From contig NZ_JAGIOS010000002.1 of the NCBI RefSeq assembly GCF_017876815.1, positions 90,001 through 122,000 of the forward strand: a stretch of DNA of 32,000 nucleotides, in the 5' to 3' direction. The position numbers and the translations under genes are program-made. The notes under the pieces were generated by a model. It did no database searches and was not told where the DNA came from. It worked only from the letters and a program-made list of their open reading frames with translations. Origin of the DNA: Sinorhizobium meliloti. Lineage in GTDB: Bacteria; Pseudomonadota; Alphaproteobacteria; Rhizobiales; Rhizobiaceae. This document shows, in pieces, positions 17,485 through 26,625 of this stretch (positions within the stretch are counted from its first letter, which is position 1; the number at the start of each line of letters is the position of its first letter).

Positions 17485-18657
17485 ATGCGTATCTTGCTTA
17501 CGGGAATCCCGTCCTATCTGCAGCGAACCGTCTCGGGCGTGTCCGGCGCGGAGGTTCGGCACAGGCCCTATTTCGACGAGGTCAGAACCAAGAAGGAACT
17601 GATCGAGCAGGTCAAGAAGATCGCCAATACCGGCAATTATCTGATCGGCGAGGGCGCGGCCCATGCTCTTCGCGGGCATGACGTCACCTATTTGCCCTTC
17701 TGGCATCTCGTCAACAGCAGGAACTCCGACGAGGCTTATGAAAGCCTCAACGAGGAATTCGACATCTGCGTCTTCGCTTCGGCCAACCTCCTGCGCCCGG
17801 GCTACTCGGCGGATCTCGAGGCGGAAGTCTTCGAGAAACTGAAGATGCCGGTGGTGATCATGGGGATCGGTATCCAGCGGAGGGAAGGGCTCAAGGAAAA
17901 CCTGCCTGCCGGCACGCTCAAGTTCCTGGAGGTGCTTAGGAACAAAGAGAGCTTCTTCCTCACGCGCGGTTATTTCACGGCCGAGTTCCTGAGGGAACAG
18001 GGCATGAAGTTCGTGAAGCCGACGGGTTGCCCCTCGCTCTTCTTCGCGCCGGCCGAGATGAAGCGTTCGCTCGCCGCGCTCGCCAATCCGGAGCTCGCTT
18101 CCTCTCAGAAGATCGCCTTCGGAGGCTATCTCGGAAGCGTGGCCGACACGATCGTCGACGCCCACGCGCTGCTGAAACCGGACAGCGTCGCGAGCTACGT
18201 CATCCAGGATGAGGTAGTCGCCTACAATCTCTCCCTTCCCGTGGACGACGACTTGCCCGTCTACGACCGCGCTAGCGGGCGCATCACCGGCCAGACCGCC
18301 TACAAGCATTCGGAGAAATGGCAGCGCAAACACGAGCTCCTGGTGTTCTTCGACACCAATCAATGGCGAAGCTGGGTCTCCGCGCGCGATCTCTGCTTCG
18401 GCCGCCGTTTTCACGGCTGCATCATCGGCATGCAGGCGGGCGTGCCGTCGCTCATGATCGCGGTCGACGATCGCATGCGGGAAATGCTGGAATTCATCGG
18501 CTTCCCCTACATGGAGGCGGCAGTCTGGAACCGGGAGCAGGACAGGAAGGCCTATCTTGCCAGCTTCCTCTCCAAGATCGATGCGCAGGCTGTCATCGAC
18601 CGGTACTCGGCCTGTGAGACCAACTTCCGCAATGCTCTGGCGCATGTCGGGCTCTAG
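17485..18657 (+). CDS. wgaE: polysaccharide pyruvyltransferase-like protein, paralogue 2 (ExpA5/WgaE position)
   Basis: 390 aa and collinear with wgaD over its full length (NTGNYLIGEGA, FDICVF, KMPVVIMGIGIQ, PTGCPS, YVIQDE, FFDTNQWR, GRRFHGCIIGMQAGVPSLMIAVDDRMREM). Confidence 0.7.
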   Translation: MRILLTGIPSYLQRTVSGVSGAEVRHRPYFDEVRTKKELIEQVKKIANTGNYLIGEGAAHALRGHDVTYLPFWHLVNSRNSDEAYESLNEEFDICVFASANLLRPGYSADLEAEVFEKLKMPVVIMGIGIQRREGLKENLPAGTLKFLEVLRNKESFFLTRGYFTAEFLREQGMKFVKPTGCPSLFFAPAEMKRSLAALANPELASSQKIAFGGYLGSVADTIVDAHALLKPDSVASYVIQDEVVAYNLSLPVDDDLPVYDRASGRITGQTAYKHSEKWQRKHELLVFFDTNQWRSWVSARDLCFGRRFHGCIIGMQAGVPSLMIAVDDRMREMLEFIGFPYMEAAVWNREQDRKAYLASFLSKIDAQAVIDRYSACETNFRNALAHVGL

Positions 18658-23257: not shown

Positions 23258-23302
23258 AGCGGGACGCGGACGGAAAGCCGCGCGCACTTTCCTCATCCCG
23301 CC

Positions 23303-24121
23303 CTAGCCGGCGAGTTCGGCGCGAAGACCTTGGATGAAAGCGAGAAGCGCCTGCTGCGGATCCGCGCCTTCGCCGGCGAGAACGGTTACGCCCCAGTTTC
23401 TGAGCACCGCTTCCTGCACGGGATTCGGCCGGTACATGAAGACGTAGGAAGGAGGCCGGTCCTTTTCGTGTCCGGATCTCCGCCAGGTGCTCCAGATGCG
23501 GTGGAGAAGCAGGCGGATGTTCAGGTCCGACATGCTGTAGCCGATGAACAGCACGGTCGCCTCGAGTGCGTCGCTGCGAAAGCGGACGTCCAGCGGAGAG
23601 TCGAAGGACAGCCGGTTGAAATAGTCGGTTTCGGTCAGGATGAGCGTGTCTTCATCGTCGAAGTCGCCGTGATACTTGATGATTCGCGTGACGCCTGCGG
23701 GCGCGGAGGCGATGTCGCGCACGTGGCTGATCTTTGCATAGCGCTTGCCGTAGACCTCGTAGGCGATTTCCAGATTGCTGTCGTAGTTGGTCGTGTAGAT
23801 CACCGGAAAGTCGAGCTCGACGATCAACCGATGCAGTTCCGAACGTTCGATGCGCTCCGGCGAGACGCGCCAGTTTTGCCGCATCCATTCGCACAGCGAG
23901 GTGATGTCCCCGTGTTGCAGGCGATAGCATTCGGCGATCGTCTGATAGGAGATGTCGGGATCGTGCATGACGGAATCGTCCAGGCGCAGCTCGCTCAGAA
24001 TGTGATCGACCAGCGTTTTCCACGACGGCAATCCGACGCTCATCGACACGCCAGCCCCGACAAACAGGACCGCGTGCCGGCGCTCCAGCGCCGAAACGAT
24101 CTCCTTGGTGTGTTTCTTCAT
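23303..24121 (-). CDS. stand-alone SIR2-like (SIR2_2 / ThsA-N-terminal-type) domain protein, putative NAD+-consuming enzyme
   Basis: 272 aa. Motifs: LFVGAGVSMSVGLPSW (res 19-34), TTNYD (110-114), KYHGD (149-153), FIGYSMSD (192-199). AGGAG RBS 6 nt before ATG 24121. Convergent with rfbD. Confidence 0.85.
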   Translation of the reverse strand: MKKHTKEIVSALERRHAVLFVGAGVSMSVGLPSWKTLVDHILSELRLDDSVMHDPDISYQTIAECYRLQHGDITSLCEWMRQNWRVSPERIERSELHRLIVELDFPVIYTTNYDSNLEIAYEVYGKRYAKISHVRDIASAPAGVTRIIKYHGDFDDEDTLILTETDYFNRLSFDSPLDVRFRSDALEATVLFIGYSMSDLNIRLLLHRIWSTWRRSGHEKDRPPSYVFMYRPNPVQEAVLRNWGVTVLAGEGADPQQALLAFIQGLRAELAG

Positions 24122-24180
24122 GGTCGCTCCTGTTCGGAGCGCTCAACACACGAGGCGGGTAGATGTTCCCTTCTGCGCCT

Positions 24181-24351
24181 TTACTGTCTGGCTGCCGCCT
24201 TCTGGGCGTCGGCACGGGCGGGCGGATCGGGCGCAGCCCATTCCACGGCCGCGATGGCGGAGCCGAGCAGGAGGGCGGGCAGAGCGAGCGCTGCGAAAAA
24301 CCGAAGCACGTGACGGCGACGCATGCGCTTCTTATCCTGATCGTAAACCAT
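24181..24351 (-). CDS. small (56 aa) single-pass membrane protein, hypothetical
   Basis: MVYDQDKKRMRRRHVLRFFAALALPALLLGSAIAAVEWAAPDPPARADAQKAAARQ: a basic N-terminus followed by one hydrophobic helix. GC3-rich codons. It lies 60 nt upstream of, and co-directional with, the SIR2 gene. The RBS is weak, and the longer 85-aa version in the track is possible. Confidence 0.45.
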   Translation of the reverse strand: MVYDQDKKRMRRRHVLRFFAALALPALLLGSAIAAVEWAAPDPPARADAQKAAARQ

Positions 24352-24506
24352 CTTCCGCCCCGCCCTGGATAGATTGGAAACAGCCCTCGTGCGATAGAAG
24401 CAGAGAAGCCCCTCAAGGTCGAGTTCCCTGGGTAACACAACTTTGTGTCTGTAACGTCACGTCCGACGGCCGGCTTCCCGGAAAAGCACGATCGCCGCCG
24501 GCTCGA

Positions 24507-24531
24507 TGAACCAAATGCGTTCTCATGAGTT
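24507..24531 (+). promoter_or_regulatory. EcfG/RpoE2-type (general stress sigma) promoter candidate for the CsbD gene: TGAAC-N16-AGTT
   Basis: TGAAC at 24507-24511, a 16-nt spacer, then AGTT at 24528-24531, about 36 nt upstream of the ATG. Confidence 0.45.
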
Positions 24532-24566
24532 CCAACTTCAATGCAATTGAACCAGGAGGACTACTC

Positions 24567-25475: not shown

Positions 25476-25500
25476 GGAACAACCGGAACCGGGTTTGGTT
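25476..25500 (+). promoter_or_regulatory. EcfG/RpoE2-type promoter candidate for the BON-domain operon: GGAAC-N16-GGTT
   Basis: GGAAC at 25476-25480, a 16-nt spacer, then GGTT at 25497-25500, about 100 nt upstream of ATG 25602. A weaker TGAAC-N17-GTTT lies at 25548-25573. Confidence 0.5.
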
Positions 25501-26600: not shown

Positions 26601-26625
26601 GGAACAATCCTGTCAATCCGCAGTT
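26601..26625 (+). promoter_or_regulatory. EcfG/RpoE2-type promoter candidate for the DUF1236 gene: GGAAC-N16-AGTT
   Basis: GGAAC at 26601-26605, a 16-nt spacer, then AGTT at 26622-26625, about 37 nt upstream of ATG 26662. Confidence 0.55.

Follow-up and report, generated by a model that had tools for sequence, protein, structure and literature searches.

A KomB-less KomC-family SIR2 protein with a general-stress promoter in Sinorhizobium meliloti

A SIR2-family gene was analysed in a 32-kb stretch of Sinorhizobium meliloti DNA (contig NZ_JAGIOS010000002.1, positions 90,001 to 122,000; the whole 32,000-nt stretch is called the window below). The gene is located on the reverse strand at 23303..24121 and corresponds to locus tag SMb21328 on pSymB of strain 1021 (NC_003078, 997274-998092). 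Its product is a 272-aa single-domain SIR2_2 protein of the KomC family, placed in a clade whose members have no KomB beside them and are called orphans here. On balance, we favour the reading that SMb21328 is a stand-alone KomC descendant that has lost KomB and KomA, has come under the control of the stress sigma factor EcfG (RpoE2 in S. meliloti) and acts as a KomC-like enzyme cleaving nicotinamide adenine dinucleotide (NAD+), that is, as an NADase. Neither the defence field nor the stress-response field would have expected a sensor-less KomC-type effector to be part of the general stress response of Alphaproteobacteria.

Identity of the SIR2 protein and its missing partners

The locus matches strain 1021 with 99.6% identity over NC_003078 997274-998410 and several pSymB records with 100% identity. 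The protein contains the motifs GAGVS (residues 22-26), TTNYD (110-114, with Asn112), KYHGD (149-153, with His151) and GYSMSD (194-199, with Asp199), and SIR2_2 is its sole Pfam domain (E = 4e-26; 92 bits, cut-off 24.5). An earlier reading of this DNA, made by a model from the letters without database searches (the sequence-only reading), had described a 272-aa open reading frame (ORF) with the full SIR2_2 signature and had called it a bare catalytic domain without a fused sensor. Both descriptions hold, with all motifs at the residues it had given.

The same reading had labelled the protein ThsA-like and had suggested that a predicted model be compared by Foldseek with ThsA, DSR and sirtuins. 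In a phmmer search against the PDB sequences, the best match was KomC (8zsf; E = 2e-77, 263 bits, residues 8-264 of 272), and ThsA and DSR2 reached 68 and 58 bits, respectively. SMb21328 is 46% identical to Escherichia coli KomC over a trimmed alignment. An AlphaFold2 model with a predicted local distance difference test score (pLDDT) of 90.7, used as the Foldseek query, gave template modelling (TM) scores of 0.89-0.93 for KomC, followed by 0.86-0.88 for 9v0g, which by Foldseek is a second, divergent KomBC and ranks ahead of both DSR2 (~0.8) and ThsA (0.73-0.78). A literature search by the PDB code 9v0g found nothing. These results place SMb21328, by sequence and predicted structure, in the KomC clade of the SIR2_2 proteins. 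The NADase-type SIR2_2 domain was recognized correctly from the letters, but the nearest relative is KomC and not ThsA. PADLOC (2023) gave ThsA as the top match (E = 7e-31), with a library that is older than the description of Kongming, the system to which KomC belongs. Because the AlphaFold2 model fits the structures of KomC alone and of KomC bound to deoxyinosine triphosphate (dITP) equally well, it gives no active or inactive state.

SMb21328 and KomC of E. coli NCTC13216 (PDB 8zsf, 8zsi, 9xvc) have the same length, the same single-domain architecture and identical catalytic Asn, His and Asp residues. ThsA of Thoeris has the SIR2_2 fold and the same catalytic motifs, but SMb21328 has no SLOG domain and no ThsB or TIR gene was found among the genes called within 10 kb. 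The N-terminal SIR2_2 NADase domain of DSR2 and DSR1 is similar as well, but these proteins are ~1000-1200 aa long and contain a large sensor region that binds the phage tail tube protein, whereas nothing is fused to the 272 aa of SMb21328. With the CobB/Sir2 sirtuins (PF02146), SMb21328 shares the Rossmann-type NAD+-binding GAGxS loop and the catalytic His.

The name given to the protein in the source annotation by NCBI, 'SIR2 family NAD-dependent protein deacylase', suggests an alternative in which it is not a bulk NADase and instead serves as a deacylase or an adenosine diphosphate (ADP)-ribosyltransferase on particular stress-response targets, either proteins or small molecules. This would also fit the observation that E. 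coli KomC by itself has no NADase activity in vitro (bioRxiv 10.1101/2024.12.20.629578), as well as the induction described in the next section, for which no toxicity is reported. However, the CobB model NF040867 scored 10.8 bits on SMb21328 against a cut-off of 320, and the protein has two cysteines only (C65 and C77) and therefore lacks the four-cysteine zinc module of sirtuins. It also carries Asp199, the equivalent of an Asp that Li et al. (PMC13454610) report as essential and as a conserved residue of immune NADases that deacetylases lack. On this evidence we consider a target-specific modifier quite unlikely.

Since the nearest relative is KomC, the missing partner can be named as KomB, a catalytically dead HAM1 protein (PF01725). 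In Kongming, KomA and a phage nucleotide kinase produce dITP, which is bound by KomB; dITP-bound KomB then remodels the KomBC filament, and KomC hydrolyses NAD+. Descriptions of the system date from no earlier than 2024-2025; the SIR2 effector is reported to come always paired with KomB, and no description of KomB-less KomC homologues was found in the literature. We searched with KomA and KomB of a Vibrio KomABC locus and with KomB of a Pantoea KomBC locus as tblastn queries. Neither partner was detected in the 32-kb window (best E = 0.099), and none is present among the genes called within 10 kb, in line with the earlier statement that no sensor gene is encoded nearby. Scanning one genome per species for relatives of SMb21328 yielded 80 alphaproteobacterial loci at 54-93% identity, and KomA or KomB was found within 8 kb on either side in 0 of the 80. 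A KomC-like protein is encoded on 202 plasmid records; KomB-like proteins on plasmids were confined to Pantoea, Vibrio, Acinetobacter and a few others, and the plasmid search found no KomB on pSymB or on other rhizobial replicons carrying the SIR2 gene. As a control, 80 metagenomic loci were retrieved with KomB as the query: komC begins 0-32 nt 3' of komB in 78 of them, and the remaining two contigs are truncated.

The HAM1 partner might instead be encoded elsewhere, as a distant KomB-like gene or as the housekeeping RdgB, in which case nucleotide sensing would be kept with the genes unlinked. KomC needs KomB for activity, and rhizobial chromosomes encode a housekeeping HAM1 protein with ~31% identity to KomB, both of which would favour such an arrangement. 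It is opposed by the adjacency of the two genes in the control loci, by the tight association and co-evolution of KomB and KomC reported by Zeng et al., by the lack of KomB in the orphan loci and on pSymB, and by the residues needed for KomB binding, which are not conserved in the orphans. We regard an unlinked HAM1 partner as very improbable.

A neighbour-joining tree was built from sequences dereplicated at 90%, comprising 57 orphans and 30 KomB-linked KomCs. The split between the two groups was recovered in 40/40 bootstraps. When the tree was rooted on the 9v0g KomC, the orphans were monophyletic in 35/40 bootstraps and nested among the KomB-linked sequences, and the parsimonious reading would be that KomB was lost once in the orphan lineage. 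Bradyrhizobium (26/26), Rhizobium (7/7) and Sinorhizobium (10/10) each form a monophyletic genus in the SIR2 tree, and synteny around the gene is partly retained within Sinorhizobium. Both features argue for largely vertical descent of the orphans, and the distribution fits a clade of Hyphomicrobiales and a small number of other Alphaproteobacteria that was passed on mostly by vertical inheritance. KomBC, in contrast, spreads horizontally according to Zeng et al.

Several other members of the family were encountered in these searches. Large plasmids of Pantoea (locus L006 and 95 plasmid records) carry a conserved KomB-KomC pair, and in P. ananatis PA13, the sole Pantoea locus inspected, the pair has no adjacent KomA and lies beside fhuE and a YebG-family gene, with no obvious defence island. 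The KomB-linked KomCs nearest to the orphan clade are found on three metagenome contigs (L115, L139 and L155), which have no co-directional KomA and instead contain an upstream opposite-strand gene with 24-28% identity to KomA. Relatives at 35-42% identity (representatives P0125, P0141, P0144 and others) include proteins of ~460-490 aa with a ~200-aa N-terminal extension, possibly the fusions of KomB and KomC to which Zeng et al. refer, and a further large group of relatives, ~520-560 aa long, has a C-terminal extension. Two orphan copies per genome occur in Mesorhizobium sp. AaZ16 (L018 on the chromosome and L020 on a plasmid) and in Bradyrhizobium sp. 164 (L065 and L066), and each of these copies has the GGAAC-N18-19-TT motif, described below, upstream.

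The promoter upstream of the orphan genes

An EcfG/RpoE2-type promoter motif, GGAACATCTACCCGCCTCGTGTGTT, is located at 24145..24169 on the reverse strand, 24-48 nt upstream of the SIR2 ATG and within the 59-nt spacer between the SIR2 gene and a small upstream ORF, SMb21329. The RpoE2 (EcfG) consensus of S. meliloti is GGAAC-N18-19-TT or GGAAC-N15/16-gcgTTt (PMC3738161, PMC4914127). We counted GGAAC-N18-19-TT in the 150 nt upstream of each gene in 81 orphan loci, namely the window and its 80 relatives. The motif was present upstream of 65 of the 81 orphan SIR2 genes, and a GAAAC variant was found at the same place in 9 further loci (all 7 of Rhizobium and 2 of Mesorhizobium). By comparison, it occurred upstream of 80/857 other genes in the same loci (9.3%; odds ratio 39, p = 5e-44) and in 2.6% of random 150-nt windows drawn from them. 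In the KomB-linked loci, even with the variant G[GA]AAC allowed, it was seen upstream of komC in 0/80 and upstream of komB in 1/78. A purine directly precedes the TT in 62 of the 65 matches, which the search pattern did not demand. Of 17 genus-level groups, 15 have the motif, among them Phenylobacterium and Inquilinus from outside Hyphomicrobiales. These comparisons indicate that the feature conserved across the orphan genera is the predicted promoter and not a partner gene.

Expression data published for S. meliloti agree with the motif. In an rpoE2 overexpression array, Table S18 of PMC3616915 gives SMb21328 a signal log ratio of 4.02 +/- 0.78 (~16-fold up) and the neighbouring CsbD gene, SMb21330, a value of 4.26. 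Motif conservation and the published array together indicate general-stress control of SMb21328 expression, and the stress-linked role, one of several options raised by the sequence-only reading, is the option that gains direct support from the RpoE2 motif and the array.

SMb21328 resembles the genes of the EcfG/RpoE2 regulon (CsbD, BON/OsmY-like, DUF2934) in the GGAAC-N18-19-TT motif, in the rpoE2 induction and in the S. meliloti neighbourhood that they share. It differs in kind, since no NAD+-cleaving immune-type enzyme was found discussed as a conserved regulon member in main-text literature. Main texts likewise yielded no discussion of a SIR2 gene as an EcfG regulon member and no mention of the tags SMb21328 and SMb21330-34. 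An orthologue in R. etli CFN42, which could provide an independent stress link, was not among the plasmid matches listed, and a scan for sigma-70 promoters found none.

The same motif recurs in the gene island next to SMb21328. It is found at 25476-25500 (+), 102 nt upstream of a BON gene (25602), and at 26601-26625 (+), 37 nt upstream of a DUF1236 gene (26662), a pattern that fits the island being a cluster of the RpoE2 regulon. Another match, at 24509-24533 (-), is found ~160 nt in front of the small ORF, where it overlaps with the region upstream of the CsbD gene.

Conserved residues and the proposed mechanism

To compare the orphans with the characterised enzyme, residues were mapped onto E. 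coli KomC. The catalytic N112, H151 and D199 (N107, H146 and D194 in E. coli) are invariant in 57/57 orphans and in 30/30 KomB-linked sequences. E164, R182 and R203 correspond to E. coli residues whose salt bridges exist in the KomC tetramer only when it is active, and SMb21328 keeps all three; E164 and R203 are invariant in 57/57 orphans and R182 is found in 54/57. Between S. meliloti and either S. medicae or Ensifer sp. USDA 6670, the ratio of nonsynonymous to synonymous substitution rates (dN/dS) of the SIR2 gene is 0.12-0.18.

The KomB-binding surface, taken as D44, S245, E246 and D248 of E. coli KomC, shows a different pattern. Ser245 is present in 26/30 KomB-linked sequences vs 2/57 orphans and Asp248 in 24/30 vs 14/57, and SMb21328 has G250 and A253 at these two positions. 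The KomB-contact residues of the orphans thus appear to be relaxed. The orphans also carry an invariant signature of their own, consisting of N116, D166, H207, W210, S216, G217 and R222. Of the 27 positions conserved in a clade-specific manner, 8 lie in the counterpart of E. coli residues 188-217, the segment that swings onto the NAD+ site upon activation of KomC (enriched, p = 0.006).

From these features a mechanism can be proposed. The comparison of loci shows that the lineage lost the dITP-sensing KomB and the signal-making KomA. EcfG (RpoE2 in S. meliloti) would set SMb21328 expression transcriptionally through the promoter directly upstream, so that the protein would build up under heat or salt stress, during starvation or as cells become stationary. 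SMb21328 would then probably form a KomC-like homo-tetramer or filament and cleave NAD+ to nicotinamide and ADP-ribose; such an activity is suggested by the invariant catalytic Asn, His and Asp, the kept tetramer salt-bridge residues and the remodelled activation helix. H207, W210, S216, G217 and R222 in this helix could substitute a self-contained or differently triggered switch for activation driven by KomB, and a post-translational trigger probably persists.

Several points weigh against this proposal. The inactivity of E. coli KomC by itself, mentioned above, is one of them; an orphan might likewise lack activity, depend on a further activator or act on a different substrate. The rpoE2-overexpressing cultures, in which SMb21328 was ~16-fold up, could be grown and profiled, which together with the inactivity of KomC without KomB speaks against a strong constitutive NADase. 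Most orphans retain the KomC filament contacts R72, S73, D76 and R77, but the Sinorhizobium subclade has C77, E78, R81 and Q82 at these four positions; the substitutions of D by R and of S by E may amount to a charge swap that leaves the interface intact, or to a loss of filament formation. In an RNA-seq study, no transcription start site is recorded for SMb21328, and direct RpoE2 dependence therefore rests on the motif and the array. The phylogeny is modest, being a neighbour-joining tree with one distant outgroup, the 9v0g KomC. Finally, the KomB search covered the window, pSymB, the rhizobial plasmids and 8 kb on either side in the 80 loci, with the S. meliloti chromosome outside its scope.

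The tolerated 16-fold induction suggests that the protein is held off after translation, and it is also what would be expected if SMb21328 were still an anti-phage abortive-infection effector that stays inactive until it meets a signal or partner encoded elsewhere or a phage product, with the stress response only raising its level. The closest characterised relatives (KomC, ThsA and DSR2) are all defence NADases, the Asp specific to such NADases is conserved, and the SIR2 gene is present in some Sinorhizobium strains and absent from others, as many accessory defence genes are. Against a retained defence role stand the 150 flanking genes scanned, which include no defence or mobile-element neighbours, the grouping of the sequences by genus, unlike the horizontally mobile KomBC, the relaxed KomB-contact residues and the stress promoter, which takes the place of a partner gene as the feature conserved across genera. 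We judge such a role to be unlikely.

A more far-reaching form of the stand-alone reading, which we put forward only tentatively and as the less probable outcome, is that a Kongming immune effector has been domesticated. The sensor-less KomC-type NADase would then be a general-stress output with an intrinsic switch in its activation helix, and would lower NAD+ or yield ADP-ribose and nicotinamide for dormancy or survival. With a large clade of KomCs that lack KomB, appear to descend vertically and stand under a stress sigma factor, one may ask how an NADase would switch on without its sensor and what role an NAD+-cleaving enzyme of immune type plays in the rhizobial general stress response. 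The answers bear on the recruitment of immune effectors into core physiology, or the reverse, and on the NAD+ economy in dormancy and symbiosis. S. meliloti is suited to direct tests because of its good genetics, the existing rpoE2 tools and the natural strains that lack the SIR2 gene.

The leader hairpin, the small upstream gene and the neighbourhood

The leader of the SIR2 gene contains a hairpin at 24124..24144 on the reverse strand (GAGCGCUCC - loop - GGAGCG), which begins directly after the -10 TT of the RpoE2-type motif and holds the SIR2 Shine-Dalgarno GGAG in its 3' arm. The fold of 24100-24200 (-) has -32.3 kcal/mol with z = -2.9. In S. medicae, USDA 6670, Ensifer aridi, S. saheli and Ensifer LCM 4579, the hairpin stems are invariant and the loops variable. 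A function in shielding the SIR2 gene from read-through of the small ORF was considered and rejected, because the hairpin is also present in Sinorhizobium species without the small ORF; it therefore belongs to the SIR2 leader as such. By its sequence it would pair with the SIR2 Shine-Dalgarno, and any function it has would be putative. An Rfam scan of the whole 32-kb window gave no match.

SMb21329 (24181..24351 on the reverse strand, with its ATG at 24351 and its stop at 24181-24183) encodes a 56-aa 'hypothetical exported peptide' and, in the same orientation as the SIR2 gene, ends 59 nt upstream of it. The peptide has a basic N-terminus and a single hydrophobic segment with a mean Kyte-Doolittle value of 2.27 over 19 residues. 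Its dN/dS is 0.17 and 0.07 in frame vs 1.6-2.0 out of frame, which indicates a real coding gene. A box for Clr, a cAMP (cyclic adenosine monophosphate) receptor-like regulator, lies at 24422..24437 on the reverse strand (TGTTACCCAGGGAACT), 71 nt upstream of the SMb21329 ATG. This box is an exact match to the smb21329 entry in supplementary file 3 of PMC5498481, and the box and the 71-nt distance together identify the 56-aa ORF as the smb21329 of that study, where it is reported as Clr/cAMP-induced. The smb21328 gene is absent from the Clr paper and its supplements, and SMb21329 does not occur in the part of Table S18 of PMC3616915 that was covered.

The sequence-only reading had proposed that this co-directional single-transmembrane ORF forms a minimal two-gene module with the SIR2 gene. 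The ORF and its hydrophobic segment are real, the gene is under purifying selection, and the terminator scan found no intrinsic terminator in the 59 nt between the two genes, all of which would suit a small protein that controls or partners SIR2. However, apart from the S. meliloti window, only 2 of the 80 loci, those of Ensifer sp. USDA 6670 and S. medicae, have SMb21329 next to the SIR2 gene. S. meliloti LMB1 pA (L167) and Sinorhizobium sp. K101 (L168) align collinearly with the window (91-93% identity) but lack ~890 bp, corresponding to window positions 23293-24182, that contain the SIR2 gene together with its RpoE2-type promoter, and only a short unrelated junction remains; this pattern without the SIR2 gene is seen in four plasmid records. 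The small ORF and its Clr box are intact in both strains despite the precise absence of SIR2. Being lineage-restricted and intact where SIR2 is lacking, SMb21329 is not a SIR2 partner, and its Clr box and the RpoE2 motif of the SIR2 gene point to different regulons. SMb21329 thus appears from these comparisons to be a separate, lineage-specific gene under Clr/cAMP control. The comparative data largely refute a two-gene module already, and we give it hardly any credence.

The Clr-box consensus gave three strand matches at two sites in the window, with 0.21 matches expected by chance. One site, at 17984-17999, is a palindromic match to the proposed consensus (AGTTCCTGAGGGAACA) and lies inside a pyruvyl-transferase gene of the galactoglucan cluster.

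On one side, SMb21328 is flanked by the end of the galactoglucan (exopolysaccharide (EPS) II) wga cluster, in which wgaJ (SMb21327) is the final gene, and on the other by genes for CsbD, DUF2934, BON, one protein without a family match, DUF1236 and an AI-2E transporter. The genes of this stress island beside SMb21328 are rpoE2-dependent. Within 10 kb on each side, the genes called are those for rml/EPS, CsbD, DUF2934, BON, DUF1236, the AI-2E transporter, AraC and xanthine dehydrogenase. The GC content at third codon positions (GC3) is 0.80 in the SIR2 gene and 0.71-0.77 in its neighbours, so that its codon usage looks native. The setting between an EPS cluster and a stress island, the native codon usage and the lack of mobile or defence surroundings had all been noted from the letters and are borne out here, the flanking genes being metabolic or stress-related with no adjacent PADLOC system.

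Across the clade, ORFs within 5 kb of the SIR2 gene were clustered all against all, and no neighbour family occurred in more than 15 of the 80 loci. The most frequent family, in 15/80 loci at most, has no fixed position or strand. The survey of homologues that the earlier reading had recommended thus revealed no conserved neighbour or partner. PADLOC on 150 flanking genes gave incidental matches only and no defence system; by Pfam, these genes encode patatin, NUDIX, short-chain dehydrogenases, pyrroloquinoline quinone (PQQ) dehydrogenases, iron-sulfur (Fe-S) assembly proteins, LysE, LigD, DUF892 and others. The neighbour census contained no recurring adenosine deaminase or other nucleotide-modifying signal generator.

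A NUDIX gene was considered as a conserved partner and rejected, as it is found in 3-4 of the 80 loci only. A YffH/AdpP-family NUDIX gene is located directly upstream of SIR2 and on the same strand at L037 7349-7936, L058 7335-7904 and L061 7233-7913 (all +), three loci from different taxa, and at a fourth, L055 4073-4678, the NUDIX gene is downstream. Members of the YffH/AdpP family are pyrophosphatases of ADP-ribose or nucleoside diphosphate (NDP)-sugars, and a SIR2 NADase would be expected to yield ADP-ribose. In two other loci, the orphan SIR2 gene is neighboured by a gene for nicotinate phosphoribosyltransferase.

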